Positions 15,001 through 24,000 of a stretch of DNA of 64,000 bases are shown piece after piece. A program made the position numbers. The DNA lies in the NCBI GenBank assembly GCA_963735595.1, contig CAVTLK010000004.1:320001-384000 (forward strand), read 5' to 3'. This DNA is from an uncultured delta proteobacterium. Its GTDB lineage: Bacteria; Desulfobacterota; Zymogenia; Zymogenales; Zymogenaceae. Within the stretch, counting starts at the first letter, position 1. Every line of letters starts with the position of its first letter.

Positions 15001-18000
15001 GACGTTCGAGACCGGCACCCTTTACGTTACGGCCGAGGTGCCGGGGCTTGACCCCGGACGGGCGACGATCGACGTCGTCGGTGACTACCGGGATCGGGAC
15101 GAGGACGGCTTCCCGGACGTGACCGAGCTCTTCGGGGATACCGACCGGCTCAACTTCAGGCGCTGGTTTTGCGCCGTGGCAGAATCCCAGGTGTTCGAGG
15201 AAAACCGGCGCTGGGATGAGCTCAACCGGGACTGTGCGGGCCTGGTGCGGTTTGCCTATATCGAGGCCCTCAAGCCGCACGACGACGCGTTTTTCGCGTC
15301 GTACGCCACGCTGGTTTCGCCGGCCAGCCCGGACGTGAAGAGGTACGCGTATCCCGACGTGCCGCTCCTGGGAACGGCGGTCTTTCGCACGTCGCCGGGC
15401 GCGTTTACGCCCGACGATATCGGCCTCAACTTTTCTGCGGCGGGCACGGCCGAGGCGCTGCTCCAGTATAACGTCGTCTTTCTGGGACGCACCGAGCGTG
15501 ACGTGCTTCCGGGAGATCTCTTGTTCTTTTTCAACCCGGATAACCCGCGGATGCCGTCCCATACGATGATCTACCTGGGCGAGTGGGGAAGAGAGGCCGA
15601 TGACGACGAGAACGAGGACTGGCTGGTCTACCACACCGGCCCGAGGACGAACGACCGGGGCCAGGTGCGAAAGGTGAGGCTGGCCACGCTCAAGGTAGCA
15701 CCCGGACGAGCGGTGGCGGCCGGTGACGGAAAACGACCATTTTCTCGGATACTATCGGCTCAAGATACTGGATTGAAGCCCGTGTCCCCTTTCGAGAGAG
15801 GACGTCGAGAGGGACGTATCACAAAGCGCCGGGGGCGCCGACAGGCGGGGCCTGCCGGTGGTCCTGAGGTACACGGGCAGACTTCGGCTCATCCACGCGG
15901 CCCCTGCGGCCGGTAGCAGTGGATAGATATATAACGGCATACCTATCGACGAGGGAAATCATGAAAAAGTCCCTTATCCTTACCGTCGTGCTTTCTTTGG
16001 CTCTTCCGGCCGTGTCTCGGCGGCTCCTTCGAGCTTTCCACCGACAAGATCTTCGCCCCCGGCGAGCCGGTCTCGGTCACGGTGTCGGCCATGGATATCC
16101 CGACGCTGGATATCCGGCTCTACCGGGTCGACGACCCGAAGTCCTACTTCCTGGGGCTCTGAGGACGTCCACTCGCCGGAGGTCGAGTTACCAGGCGCGG
16201 ACGTATCCTCCCCCTCGGAGATGGTGGGCGCGGTCAAGCGCAAGGCCGGGCGGCTGTTGAGGGACGATTACCGGGGCAAGCTCACCGATAACATCCGCAA
16301 CGACATGGTGTCGGCCCTGGGCCTGCCCCACGCCTCGGAGCCGGACAGCCCCGCCCCCGGAAAGCTACGAGCTCTTCCCGATCCTGAAGCGCTTCAACTT
16401 CCTGAACCGCTGGCAGGAAAACCTCGTTATTTCACGTTCCGGCCAGTGGCAGTATCACACGATTAACCTGAATATCCCCGAGATCGGCTGCTATCTTGTC
16501 GAGGCGGTCTACCAGGACGAGGTGGCCTATACGATGGTGGTGGTTACCCCGATGTCGTTCGTCGTCAAGAATTCGTCCTCCGACAGCCTTATCTACGTGG
16601 CCGACCGCGTGAGCGGAAAGCCGATGCGGGGCGTCAAGGTCTCGGTCTACGACCAGAAGAAAGACCTCCTCTTTAAGGGCACGACCGACTCGGAAGGGAC
16701 CTACTACTCGAAGGTGAAGACGGGCGATTCCAACACGATCTACGTCTTCGCCGAGGACGGCGAGAGCTTCACGCTGGCAGATCCCTATGCCTACTGGTGG
16801 GACGATCGGCCGACGATAAGGTCTATACCTACACCGACCGGCCCGTCTATCGTCCCGGAGACACGGTCTTTTTCCGCTCCATCCTGAGGGAATCGACCGA
16901 CTCGGGGCTCAAGGTCCCCGACCGGGGCGACGACTACCTGGTTATCATCAACGACGCCAAGGGCAACGAGGTCTTCAGGGACGAGCTTCCGATCACCGAA
17001 TACGGGAGCCTGGCCGGCACATTACGTCCTGGGCGGCGAGCCCTCTCTCGGGGAGTACCAGATCGTCGTGGGCCTAAACGGCCAGAATTACTACAGCCGA
17101 TTTAAAGTCGAGGAATACAAGAAGCCGGAGTACGAGGTCAAGGTCAACACGGATAAGGGCGTCTATATCCGGGGCGAGACGATCCGTGCCGATATCGACG
17201 CGGGATACTATTTCGGCAGCCCCGTATCGGAGGCGAAGGTCGACTATACGATTTACCGGTCTGTCTACGAGCGCCCCTGGTGGTGGGGGTACGACTGGGG
17301 CTGGTATTTCATGGACTCCGACTACTACTATGCCCATGATAAGGTCATGGTGGACAGCGGCACGACGGCCCTGGATAACCAGGGTAAGCTCATGCTGACG
17401 GTTGATACATCTCAATATCTCGAATCGGCCGATAAAGATTATATGTTTACCATCGAGGCCTCCGTCACCGATCTCTCCCGCCGAGTGGTCACGACAAGCT
17501 CGGTGGTCAAGGTCGTCCGCTCCTCTTATTCGCTGTAACGGTTCGCCCGGACCGGTGGATCTACGCCCCCGGCGACACGGCGCGCGTGACCGTTACCGTC
17601 TCCGACTTCGACAACAACGGGATCGCCGGCGTCCCGGTACCGTGATCGTACGGTGACCGACTGGAGGACAACGTCGCCCCCGCATCGATGACGCTTACCG
17701 GTATCACCAACGTCGGCGGGGACGCCGTTATTGAATATCCCGTCGAAGACGTGGGCGATCTCACCTTTGTCGCCACGGTCTTCGATAAGGCGGGCAACAG
17801 CACCACCGCCAGGGACAGCTCCTACTCGATTACCGAGGGATATGCCTACGGGGGGGATTCGGGGGGCGGAGTTTCCATCGTCCCCGACAAGCACACCTAT
17901 GCCGTCGGCGATACGGCGCATGTCCTGATCGCAGCGCCGGTTACCGATACGTATCTCCTGGTTACAACCGAGGGGGAGGCGATCTACGACAGCAGGGTCG

Positions 18001-21000: not shown

Positions 21001-24000
21001 GATCTCGTCCACGGGATTGCCTATTCCTGCAACCTCTATTTCCTTTCCCTGGGCGACACGGTACCGGCCGATTCAACCTACCGCGGCCTCGTGGAGCTCG
21101 GTTTCGGACACAAGACCGGGGTCAACCTCCCCGGCGAGGTGGCGGGGAGGCGTTTCGCCGCCCGACGGACTCGGCCGCGACTATCTCATCGGAAATACCG
21201 ACTCCGTTACGGCCACGCCCGTGCAGGTGATCACATATCTTTCCGCACTGGTAAACGGCGGGAGCGTGTGGGTCCCGGCGGTAACCGGCTCGGCCGGCGA
21301 GATCGCGTCATTCAGCCCGCGGCTCGCGCTACAGGATAGATGCGTCGCGGGCGGCCCCCGTCATCGTCAAGGGAATGCGCGATGCGGCCCGCTACGGCAC
21401 CGCGACTAACGGCGGCCTAGAAGGACACGAGGTCATGGGCAAGACCGGCACGGGGACGCTCCTGGGGGTACCGTGGGAGACGCACGGCTGGTTTCTCGGA
21501 TTTGCCCCCGCCGAGGCGCCCGAGATTGCCGTCGTCGTCTTCCTCTACCGGGGAATGGGCGGGGAGGACGCGGCGCCGGTGGCCCGCGAGGTGTTCCGGG
21601 CATATTTCGAGGAAGGTGCGAACCAGTGAGGAGGACGTGGATCGCCTCGCTTATCGTGATCCTTGCGGCCGCGCAGGCGCCCGCGCTCGATTTTTCACTA
21701 GATCGAGACCAGGCACTTTACGATCAGGTTCGGTGAAACGTCCGCGTCACGAATACGTAACGCGGCCGCGCTCTTCGAGGCGGCCTACGGGACGATTGAA
21801 CAGGTGCTCGGGACAATCGGTACGCGGCCGATCGACGTGGTAATCTTTGCCGAGACGGGCGATTTCACCGCCGAGACGGGGCTTGCCGTATGGTCGGCCT
21901 CGGCAACGATCGACGGGGCGATCTATATGCAGCCGGTCCCGGTGCTCACGGCCCGCGGCGTGCTGGACACGACGATCCGCCACGAGGTATGCCTCGTTTT
22001 TCTGCTCAGACGCTACGGGGCCGACATGCCGGCGTGGCTCGCGGAGGGCCTGGCGGTCTATCACGCGGGCGAGATCGAGGTCCTCCGGCGGGGACTTTTC
22101 GGGGACGCCACCCCTGATCTCGGCTCCGGACGACATCGACGCAACTCCTGTTTGACCGGACCGACCGGGAAAGAAATCGCTGGGGATACGTGATGGCCTA
22201 CGAGGCGGTGCGGTCGATGATAGAGGGAGAGGCCGCGGCGCATGCGCGCAAGGGAAGTACGCGATAATCCCGTACGGGCGGCGAGCCGGGGCCGTTATTC
22301 TTGACAAATATAGCAGATTTTATTACTATATCGGCAAAATACAGTTTTAATCGCACTACGAAAGGGTTTTGGAATGAAAAGGAACGTTGTTCTCATTGTG
22401 ACTGCTTTTAGTATCGATCACCGTCCTGACAACGGGCTGTGATCAGATCAAGCAGCTGCTCGGGCTTGTCGCCCCGGGTTCCACGGATTCCGGCCCCGGC
22501 GCGGTGATCCCCGGCACCTCGCCCGGAGGGCCCGGCCCGGGCCCCGCTATTAGAGTGCTCAATTGCTGCGATATATCAAGCCTCAAGGCGGGAATCGTGA
22601 ATCTCGATAGCGCGGGAGATTACACCGGCATTACCGAGACGACGACGGTTCCTTACGTTCCCGGAACGTATATCGGCATCTATTTCGAGTATCTCAGCAA
22701 GACGGGGAAACCCATCCAGTACCGCGAAGAGGAGTTCTTCCCGTATCCGCCCCAGAACTGGAGCCTTTGGGAGGGCAGCGAGGGCAGTTACCGGACATAC
22801 CCCGAAGAAAGCCGGGCCGAGTATACGACCGTACTGACGCCGAGCACTTCCCCGTCCCCGTTCCTGAGCCACTGGGGGTTCAATACTTCCGGGGACCCTA
22901 CCGGGCAATGGAGGTGGGACATCTACTTTGATAACGAGTACTATACGACTGTGGTTTTCAACGTCGTCCCGGCCACCTATTAGCCATCAGCTCGGAACGG
23001 CTCAAACACGTTCCTACCGGTATAACGGGAAACGGGGTTGTGAGGGAATACTCAAACCCCGTTTTTCCGTATAAGGCCGCGGGTCCCGGGGGCGCGGCCG
23101 TCGGGTCATCCGCGTAGTACTTATCAGAAAAGGGGGCTGTGTGATAAAGGAGTCGACGAGGAACTTCTGGAAGATGCAGGGCGAAGGGGCGCGGGGCATG
23201 CTCCGGGCCGTCAACATGGCCCACGGGTACATTTACTATACCCTGTACGACCGCTACGTCGCCGTCGCGCTTTCGGCCCTGCGGTTCCTGACGCGCCGCT
23301 TCCCCTCGCTTTCGCTCACGCATTTGGTGATCGCCTACCTGGTTGACCATTACCACGCAAAGGTCCTTACCGTCGAGAATGCGCGAAAGCTCGTCACGCT
23401 GGACCGGGAGCTCTTAGTCCCCGATGGGGAGAGCAAACGCATAATACCGTTTGACATCGCCAACAGGCTCATCTTCAACCATAGGGATCACATCGCCCTC
23501 GTCGACTGCCCGTGCCGGCTGGAAAATATCAGCCGGGGGCTGCCTGCGTGTGAGCCGCTCAATACCTGCATGTTTCTCGGGAGGACCGGGGTCGATTTCG
23601 TGACGACCCACATGCCCCGAATGCGCGGAAGGCGGGTTTCTTCGCGGGAGGCGGCCCTGCTCATCGAGACGCAATACCGGCGGGGCGTCTCGTTCAACCT
23701 CTGGTTCAAGGACGCCACCGGTTACCGGGGAGGCGTCCTCTGCTCGTGCTGCAGCTGCTGCTGTAAGGGCGCCGAGGCGTTCCGAATCATCTCGCAGATC
23801 GGCGGGCTTGACGACAAAAGAATAGTCGCCCCATCGGGCTACGCAGCCAAAAGGGACGGCGCGAAATGCCGGGCGTGTGGGGGGTGCGCAAAGGTCTGCC
23901 CCTACGGTGCCCTGGTTTTTACCGATTCCCCCTCAGAAAGGCCGATAGATTTTATCTACGAGAGATGCAACGGCTGTGGGGCCTGCGTATCGGTTTGCGA

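Follow-up and report, generated by a model that had tools for sequence, protein, structure and literature searches.

The alpha-2-macroglobulin (A2M) gene in the window, the whole 64,000-nucleotide stretch of DNA analysed here, carries an in-frame TGA at the codon of the thioester cysteine, and this codon very probably directs the insertion of selenocysteine (Sec). This reading is adopted because the TGA occupies an invariant catalytic Cys position, the hairpin behind it exceeds three controls, its stem shows compensatory changes, the Sec machinery is present and the downstream part is under apparent purifying selection; at the level of sequence, the selenoprotein reading is supported by every genomic test run. 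A Sec-Gln selenoester in place of the Cys-Gln thioester is the predicted consequence, which we consider fairly probable. Position numbers are window coordinates (Table 1), and G000 denotes the source genome of the window.

Table 1. Features of the A2M locus in the window
Feature	Coordinates	Strand	Evidence
selA, selenocysteine synthase, one frameshift as assembled	9703..11176	+	TIGR00474, 458.6 bits (cut-off 267.9)
Conserved upstream gene, ~600 aa	12948..14726	+	42% identity to G002 counterpart
DUF1175 gene (YfaT-like), frameshifted as assembled	14641..15773	+	PF06672, E 3e-49
A2M gene, with several indels of 1-2 bases; intact relatives encode ~1,550 aa	15961..20607	+	Pfam; alignment to intact G003 gene
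YPYG-U-NEQ motif (two pocket Tyr, Sec position, Glu, acceptor Gln)	19125..19148	+	Aligned to YPYGCLEQ of 4u48/4ziu
Predicted selenocysteine codon, in-frame TGA at thioester Cys position	19137..19139	+	Reading frame and alignment
SECIS-type hairpin with a stem of 8 bp and a GTT loop, the loop 20 nt from the TGA	19152..19170	+	Folding; class conservation
C-terminal MG10 motifs RDER (20421-20432) and Met-Tyr (20541-20546)	20421..20546	+	Counterparts of RDDR and EXMY
PBP transpeptidase-domain gene, directly downstream, separate from A2M	20628..21629	+	PF00905

The TGA codon and the A2M gene

The TGA lies in the context GYPYG-TGA-NEQVMARF with 497 open codons on its 5' side and 696 on its 3' side, which confirms the position and frame given in the first-pass annotation. 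The 696 codons were reproduced, but their final part belongs to the next gene, the PBP transpeptidase, because a 1-base indel near 20549 joins the frames; the gene limits proposed earlier (16221 and 21230) are replaced by a start at 15961 and an end at 20607. The site matches YPYGCLEQ of the Salmonella and E. coli A2Ms (4u48, 4ziu), and the correspondence to the Cys rests on this alignment; TEP1 (2pn5), to which the codon had been aligned before, is indeed among the sequence matches. P, G, C/U, E and Q occur without exception in 53 aligned rows. As encoded, the CxEQ motif of the G000 protein has TGA for its Cys codon and keeps x, E and Q, and by its sequence the protein is an A2M but, as encoded, not a Cys-thioester member. 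Pfam finds bMG3, MG2, bMG5/MG3, A2M_BRD, A2M, TED and bMG10 in this order on the window pieces, and the MG domains, bait region, TED and MG10 are likewise in order when these pieces and the intact G002 protein are taken together; NCBIfam gave no family relevant to A2M or to a selenoprotein form for six A2M queries. The protecting pocket is present in G000 as YPY, RDER and LMY, and PMC4498604 describes RDDR and EXMY as the motifs that close the thioester pocket. Among 30 complete Sec-form C-termini, the pocket Met-Tyr is found in 29 and a strict RD[DE][RK] in 20.

As the first pass had remarked, the G000 gene has indels elsewhere, which alignment to the intact G003 gene places at 16019-17669 and near 20549. 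They are likely assembly errors: neighbouring genes, selA among them, are also frameshifted, and several of the extra bases are absent from contigs of other sequencing runs. The A2M copies of G004 and G005 are frameshifted as assembled too, and intact read-through frames of 1,550-1,559 aa are present in G001, G002, G007 and G009. No contig piece among those listed from the sequencing runs bridges the TGA, and the runs add nothing on the codon itself. If the TGA were a true stop, the gene would be split or decaying, and its C-terminal half would restart at the ATG of the hairpin (19152), yielding an A2M of two chains that lacks the reactive ester. The frameshifts in the three copies would fit such a state, as would the 16 of 36 genes that have an in-frame ATG no more than 20 codons away and the 8 of 49 database homologues that end at YPYG, with the N-terminal part alone. 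However, the other 20 genes have no such ATG, the frameshifts extend to the neighbours as described above, and, in a scan that asked for TGA, the codon is always TGA at one place, in long open frames across phyla, with hairpins at SECIS distance and selA/selB in the carriers, so that a true stop is very unlikely.

Upstream on the same strand, selA lies about 4.8 kb from the A2M gene. The gene at 12948..14726 had no Pfam match; its Atlas feature matches (0.95-0.96) are to YfaA/DUF2138- or DUF3352-like proteins, a lead as to its nature. A promoter and terminator scan gave 5 promoter-like sites against 3.9 expected, and it did not resolve the operon limits. The start of the A2M resembles a signal peptide without a lipobox Cys, and five intact A2M proteins of the class have no Cys within their first 175 residues.

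The hairpin after the TGA codon

The hairpin of G000, ATGGCAAG-GTT-CTTGCCAT, stands at 19152-19170. In the bacterial SECIS model the loop has 3-9 nt with a G in its first two places, the stem has 4-16 bp, the distance from the UGA is 16-37 nt and the free energy is at most -7.5 kcal/mol (PMC13188914); with its GTT loop, 8 bp, 20 nt and -9.1 kcal/mol, the hairpin reported in the first pass is present and fits this model. Folding z-scores are -3.17 for 19150-19180 and -2.33 for 19137-19200. A similar hairpin, GTGGCA-GGTCT-TGCCAC, belongs to the G000 fdhA gene. When G000 was scanned blindly for a TGA followed by a hairpin, 496 candidates resulted, mostly chance, and therefore the hairpin alone is not evidence.

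The controls concern the wider set of A2M loci. A hairpin was found at 31 of 38 genome TGA loci, where synonymous resampling predicts 5.05, and at none of the 46 chance matches; the cut-off was chosen after preliminary hairpin results, and at -7.5 kcal/mol the genome count is 28 of 38. For the metagenome TGA loci the figures are 30 of 43, 5.2 expected and 1 of 53 chance matches, while Cys homologues have it in 1 of 53 and 4 of 29 cases in two sets (5/82 overall). At the chosen cut-off, a perfect hairpin is absent from 7 of the 38 genome loci and 13 of the 43 metagenome loci. A hairpin in fixed register occurs in 22 of 39 Sec and 0 of 27 Cys sequences, counts that overstate independence since 12 of the 39 come from this one class. 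Its stem carries the base-pair swaps A-T/C-G, G-C/A-T and C-G/G-C, which are compensatory base changes.

Selenocysteine machinery and genetic code

G000 has selA (frameshifted as assembled), selB, a TGA-bearing selD and tRNA-Sec(UCA), the last being the one UCA tRNA among 47, canonical, with 75.9 bits and G at the discriminator position. Among the 31 carriers outside the class, selA and the SelB wing are each found in 30 and at least one of the two in every carrier, against selA in 6 of 46 chance-match control genomes, which are smaller and of other phyla than the carriers. That one outside carrier had no selA match was held against the Sec reading in the first pass; such a genome (G025) also turned up here, but the objection is weakened by its selB, tRNA-Sec and TGA-bearing selD. 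Of the tRNA-Sec loci examined, 25 of 26 read UCA, and selD is TGA-bearing in all three carriers tested.

These data bear on the possibility that the hairpin recodes the UGA but that mostly Cys is inserted, through a Cys-charged tRNA or S in place of Se, leaving an ordinary thioester and a codon that is possibly an expression switch. Some deltaproteobacteria have Cys-inserting UCA tRNAs, on which our literature search found no report. Sec and Cys forms interchange often, and partial recoding would leave a 1,060-aa truncated product; recoding in E. coli is selenium-dependent and reaches 30-40% (PMC4513850). However, the sole UCA tRNA of G000 is the canonical tRNA-Sec, nearly all tRNA-Sec loci read UCA, and the carriers have selA and, where tested, the TGA-bearing selD, which makes Cys insertion improbable. 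In a separate case, the idea that a GCA tRNA decodes the TGT of locus L202 as Sec found no support, the tRNA-Sec of G699 having UCA.

That TGA is a sense codon throughout the genome (Trp or Gly), or a sequencing error, is largely refuted. Many indel errors in the assembly would favour an error, but the same TGA is found in seven other class genomes; an alternative code would leave UGA unused as a stop, but TGA is the commonest of the three stops in G000, ending 890 of 2,213 open stretches of at least 300 codons, and tRNA-Trp has the anticodon CCA.

Distribution and exchange of Sec and Cys forms

The A2M gene is present in all ten genomes of the class, with TGA in eight (four genera) and Cys in two; the identical 19-nt hairpin is found in all eight TGA genomes and in neither Cys orthologue, a tally already made in the first pass and reproduced here. 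A pattern scan of genomes, whose pattern required TGA and the YPY part of the motif, gave 83 matches, namely 36 A2M genes, one borderline case and 46 chance matches. Of the carriers, 31 lie outside the class, in Poribacteria, Myxococcota, Planctomycetota, Verrucomicrobiota and Armatimonadota, a number that overstates independence as 12 of them are Poribacteria; A2M frames were also found in 43 of 96 metagenome matches. The carriers beyond the class reported earlier are thus borne out, but their range was understated and the scatter of Sec among Cys forms went unmentioned. In a 301-genome phylum sample, all close relatives came from this class, apart from two Cys genes in a single further family.

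In several phyla the TGA occupies a single codon position within frames that are open over 1,500-2,400 codons, and neither TAA nor TAG was seen at the site among the homologue loci read, the scan itself having asked for TGA. The UGA corresponds to a Cys conserved in homologues and recurs in other species, as expected of a selenoprotein. Downstream of it, dN/dS is 0.07-0.35 in eight of ten pairs (one pair 0.87, one saturated), which passes the test for purifying selection on this part.

Sec forms do not make up one clade (AU p 2e-62; 41 of 118 tree rows, one of 119 rows being left out as under 250 aa and three short or frameshifted TGA loci standing outside the tree set). They are scattered among Cys forms and their hairpin positions differ, which points to many separate switches between Cys and Sec, every gain apparently having brought a hairpin of its own. 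Sec (G000) and Cys (G003) forms occur within one genus, 85% identical over the aligned C-terminal two-thirds. That the Cys orthologues followed a loss of Sec use was rejected, since both genomes with a Cys form, G003 and G006, still encode tRNA-Sec and the TGA-bearing selD; selB was not found in G003, whose assembly is 89% complete, and this may be an assembly gap. As both genomes keep the Sec system, Sec is dispensable at this A2M site.

Predicted chemistry and significance

SelB very probably binds the hairpin and inserts Sec, and the A2M would be exported to the periplasm. There, Sec and the Gln three places on would condense within the TED-MG10 pocket and release ammonia, like Cys and Gln in the E. 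coli and Salmonella A2Ms. Once the bait region is cut, the pocket would open and the selenoester, being more reactive, would acylate an amine of the protease, cross-linking the trapped protease, or be hydrolysed. In model chemistry, selenoesters react faster than thioesters (PMC7232547 and PMC11600164), and the former also describes faster hydrolysis of the more reactive ester.

The selenoester may, on chemical grounds, be too unstable to persist, and Sec might be inserted without a stable selenoester, the ester hydrolysing or never closing and the protein serving in non-covalent trapping or another use of the free selenol. This would fit all the recoding evidence equally well, and it would agree with the faster hydrolysis of more reactive esters. 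For MagD, a change of shape is reported although it has no thioester, and according to PMC3735191 an operon like the DUF1175/YfaA-like one found here is where class II A2Ms, which have no thioester, are encoded. Yet Gln, Glu and the pocket Tyr/Met are kept, which is expected only if ester chemistry is still in use, and a redox use of the selenol finds no Cys partner near Sec: the sole Cys of the intact G001 protein is at residue 176, and the nearest in G002, G007 and G009 is about 300 residues off. We regard the lack of a stable ester as doubtful, and prefer the Sec-Gln selenoester. For the fullest form of this reading, in which several lineages would have independently rebuilt the complement/A2M warhead with Se, with their own SECIS inside the thioester helix, at the cost of amino-acid changes (Ser to Ala/Gly), and with a stable Sec-Gln selenoester in the mature protein that captures proteases faster than the thioester, we lean only slightly in favour.

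If true, a large, exported, non-redox protein would be added to the selenoproteome, and an internal selenoester would be predicted in a natural protein. The G000 Sec and G003 Cys pair offers a ready comparison for what Se buys an acyl-transfer warhead and why Sec is used over Cys. The eight database proteins that stop at YPYG are recorded only to this point and these genes are therefore annotated without the reactive domain, an annotation gap.

Comparison with known systems

Like known prokaryotic selenoproteins (e.g. FdhA, SelD), the G000 A2M has an in-frame UGA at the Cys of its homologues, a SECIS just downstream and selA/B/C/D in the genome. Among 119 prokaryotic selenoprotein families, most of them redox or metal-binding proteins, there is no A2M, UxEQ motif or internal acyl-ester protein (PMC13188914 Table 1, 2026), and our literature search found neither a Sec form of a thioester protein nor a report of a genetically encoded Sec-Gln selenoester as a natural protein linkage. 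The animal thioester proteins TEP1 (2pn5), CD109 and A2M match the thioester region with E-values between 4e-9 and 5e-3; as far as seen, all 16 solved-structure matches are ordinary Cys-type or mutant, whereas G000 has TGA.

With the class I A2Ms (E. coli ECAM/YfhM, Salmonella SaA2M; 4ziq, 5a42, 4rtd, 4u48), the G000 protein shares the MG, bait-region, TED and MG10 domains, the motif YPYG-x-x-EQ, the pocket Tyr, Tyr, Met, Tyr and RDxR, and a PBP gene directly downstream. It differs in having TGA and a hairpin instead of the Cys codon, and in the DUF1175 gene upstream; the lipobox Cys and adjacent PBP1C of class I are also lacking, as the A2Ms of this bacterial class have no lipobox Cys and the downstream PBP gene has the transpeptidase domain (PF00905) only. 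The Sec forms of Poribacteria, Myxococcota, Verrucomicrobiota and Vicinamibacteria adjoin a PBP1C-type gene (5/5 tested). Class II (P. aeruginosa MagD and E. coli YfaS) resembles the G000 locus in its multi-gene operon with DUF1175 and the YfaA-like gene and in a signal peptide without a lipobox Cys, and JGI labels the nearest Cys homologues 'YfaS (alpha-2-macroglobulin family)'. MagD is described as having no CXEQ motif (PMC3735191), whereas the G000 A2M keeps the motif, with Sec predicted in the place of its Cys.

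Reactive site and Sec machinery of the host

The alpha-2-macroglobulin (A2M) gene of the window carries an in-frame TGA within GYPYG-TGA-NEQVMARF, with 497 open codons upstream and 696 downstream, followed by a bacterial SECIS-type hairpin (8-bp stem, GTT loop), as the first-pass annotation had proposed in placing selenocysteine (Sec) at the thioester Cys. In the sequence alignment the TGA shares its column with the YPYGCLEQ cysteine of the A2Ms from Salmonella and E. coli, and Pfam MG, bait-region, thioester (TED) and MG10 domains are spread over the gene pieces of the window. 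An A2M gene does lie at 16221..21230 as first annotated, but these limits are wrong; comparison with the intact gene of the class relative G003 gives the span in the table and reveals 1-2 base indels in the host gene, the downstream one fusing the A2M frame with the next gene, a PBP transpeptidase. Because genes next to A2M, selA included, are frameshifted too and several of the extra bases are absent from contigs of other runs, the indels most likely arose as errors of assembly. The relatives G001, G002, G007 and G009 have uninterrupted read-through frames of 1,550-1,559 codons.

Coordinates of the features (G000, host; W, window)
Feature	Location	Position	Strand
Exported-looking repeat protein	W	8847-9527	
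selA	W	9703-11176	
A2M gene, true span	W	15961-20607	
Indels in A2M gene	W	16019-17669; near 20549	
In-frame TGA	W	19137-19139	
SECIS-type hairpin	W	19152-19170	
Formate-dehydrogenase-like gene	G000 C1	684632	-
Formate-dehydrogenase-like gene	G000 C1	658593	-
Second selD-like gene	G000 C3	24832-25476	
Sec-A2M with helical insert	L063 (Planctomycetota)	3669-9359	
selB near Sec-A2M	L091 (Planctomycetota)	2-1708	-
tRNA-Sec-like gene, GCA	L351 (G032, Planctomycetota)	327-426	

The host uses Sec together with the standard code. It encodes selA (4.8 kb upstream of A2M), selB, a TGA-bearing selD, one tRNA-Sec(UCA) (75.9 bits) and tRNA-Trp(CCA), and TGA is an ordinary stop, as previously stated, ending 890 of 2,213 open stretches of at least 300 codons. 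Its fdhA hairpin after UGA, GTGGCA-GGTCT-TGCCAC, is similar to that of A2M. Both formate-dehydrogenase-like genes in the table have UH motifs and hairpins after TGA, and the second selD-like gene has no TGA. Among the loci inspected for selA upstream of A2M (L031, L032, L033, L036, L037 and L038), a selA-like start was seen by eye at the matching place, about 4.5-5 kb ahead of A2M, in G001-G005, the Cys carrier G003 included, and was not found in the A2M regions examined for G007 and G009. The exported-looking protein contains a pair of similar internal repeats (NxWxGxIPSxVxHGSExTNDQ) and is conserved upstream of selA in G003, G004 and G005.

All ten Zymogenia genomes have the A2M gene. The earlier distribution was reproduced: TGA with an identical 19-nt hairpin in eight genomes of four genera, and Cys orthologues in G003 (TGT) and G006 (TGC) without the hairpin, where SRFLP comes from other codons. 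tRNA-Sec and a TGA-bearing selD persist in both Cys carriers; the site can therefore change between Sec and Cys without loss of the Sec system.

Distribution beyond the class

A scan of 185,579 genomes for YPYG-TGA-x-EQ gave 83 matches, namely 36 A2M frames (E < 1e-5), one borderline A2M match (E 3.6e-5, short locus) and 46 chance matches. Six of the A2M matches belong to the class and 31 lie outside it, so that the spread beyond the class claimed in the first-pass annotation stands, while its counts (12 loci, six outside) are exceeded. Record titles, which give a taxon for 28 of the 31, name Poribacteria (12), Myxococcales/Myxococcaceae/Polyangia (5), Planctomycetota (4), Armatimonadota, Abditibacteriales and Ca. 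Thermosaccharophagus (together 3), Verrucomicrobiota (2), Vicinamibacteria (1) and a deltaproteobacterium (1). A profile made solely from Cys genes, with the motif masked, identified 43 of 96 metagenome matches as A2M, 34 of them distinct in the 45 nt after TGA. Variants such as YPHG escape the pattern, which makes the genome and metagenome counts lower bounds. Among the relatives sampled, Sec forms are outnumbered: TGA was found in 6 of 70 matches in Poribacteria and in 1 of 42, the query itself, in Myxococcota.

Among the 31 outside carriers, selA exceeds the cut-off in 30 and the RNA-binding wing of SelB is present in 30, the two misses being different genomes; selA occurs in 6 of the 46 chance-match genomes, a rough control because the genomes concerned are of smaller size and come from different phyla. 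tRNA-Sec was detected in 24 of 30 genomes tested, and 25 of 26 loci read UCA. In G032 a second tRNA-Sec-like gene (RF01852, 57.5 bits) has the cysteine anticodon GCA in its loop, beside a normal UCA gene. At locus L091, from a Planctomycetota genome, selB is found about 5 kb downstream of Sec-A2M.

Hairpins after the TGA

Hairpins were judged by the distance and loop rules in section 5 of PMC13188914 and by a perfect stem with a folding energy of at most -6 kcal/mol, a cut-off of our own choice set after the hairpins were first viewed. They pass in 31 of 38 TGA genes, where synonymous resampling predicts 5.05, and in 0 of 46 chance matches; 28 of the 38 pass at -7.5 kcal/mol. In the metagenomes 30 of 43 A2M matches pass (5.2 expected), as does 1 of 53 non-A2M matches. 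Cys homologues pass in 1 of 53 cases (Poribacteria and Myxococcota) and 4 of 29 (Planctomycetota and Desulfobacterota). In a fixed register, with the Sec and Cys sets put through one peptide filter, at least six of seven pairs form in 22 of 39 distinct Sec sequences (12 of the 39 from the class) versus 0 of 27 Cys sequences, with pair swaps A-T/C-G, G-C/A-T and C-G/G-C. The G that the stem needs, which changes the usual Ser to Ala or Gly, is present in 32 of 39 versus 1 of 27. By eye, several of the misses look like hairpins that have a G-T loop but are bulged or short. The loop starts 16-17 nt from the TGA in Myxococcota, 19-20 nt in the class, Armatimonadota and some Planctomycetota, 20-21 nt in Poribacteria and 32-33 nt in others. 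Within the 45 nt that follow the TGA of locus L284, AKFWP replaces the AKFVP of relatives and gives a perfect 7-bp stem, which is bulged in the relatives.

The site is real, and we regard it as very likely that its UGA is recoded as Sec, which would define a new selenoprotein variant of bacterial A2M. A2M is not among the 119 prokaryotic selenoprotein families in Table 1 of PMC13188914, the word 'macroglobulin' is absent (0 occurrences) from the main texts of this review, the BSepDB paper and the deep-Sep paper, and no Sec-A2M family of NCBIfam matched. Full-text literature searches, at the level of their result listings, returned no report of Sec-A2M or a natural Sec-Gln ester; unvalidated new candidates attributed to Deng et al. 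2026 could include it. Of 49 homologues in databases, eight stop at YPYG, and none shows U.

History of the site

Judged from the sequences, Sec-A2M is spread over several phyla by repeated switching. On a quick, unrooted tree of the thioester region (118 rows, long branches present), which does not distinguish gain from loss, the Sec/Cys label requires 13 changes, at least nine of them being forced by strongly supported branches, and a test on 41 of the 118 rows rejects a single Sec clade (p-AU 2e-62). We favour several gains of Sec, because Sec forms are nested within Cys groups and their hairpins are unrelated; G003, G006 and L202 are probable reversions to Cys. In L202 (genome G699) the thioester codon is TGT and the 9-bp stem is nevertheless identical to that of its Sec sister L103, so this reversion may be recent and the stem a SECIS left behind; the genome encodes selB, UCA tRNA-Sec and a TGA-bearing selD.

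Predicted function and comparison with known A2M classes

Across an alignment of 53 rows, the motif residues P, G, C/U, E and Q are kept throughout, as is the MG10 Tyr. The Met-Tyr described as closing the pocket in SaA2M (PMC4498604) is found in 29 of the 30 Sec C-termini that are complete; the remaining one is frameshifted. After the TGA, dN/dS is 0.07-0.35 in eight of ten pairs, 0.87 in one and saturated in one. A redox pair with Sec is disfavoured, since no Cys lies near Sec in the intact class proteins. The simplest reading is that the protein would run the known A2M cycle with Se in place of S, and we think it fairly probable that a Sec-Gln selenoester forms. Model selenoesters are described as acylating faster than thioesters, and activated ones as also hydrolysing more (PMC7232547, PMC11600164). 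UGA recoding of 30-40% is given for E. coli in PMC4513850; partial recoding would add a 1,060-aa product that lacks the reactive domain.

The A2M gene is preceded by a 600-aa gene that may be YfaA-like and by DUF1175, and is followed by a transpeptidase, and the A2M of the class has no lipobox Cys. A Planctomycetota Sec-A2M (L063) has an extra helical insert before the A2M domain with a weak squalene-cyclase-like match. The gene neighbourhood in the window and the missing lipobox Cys resemble class II operons, the MagD of which is described in PMC3735191 as having no CXEQ; the five outside Sec forms tested adjoin PBP1C-type genes, as in class I. Thus, Sec appears in both contexts, in a class-II-like operon here and beside PBP1C-type genes in those five forms.
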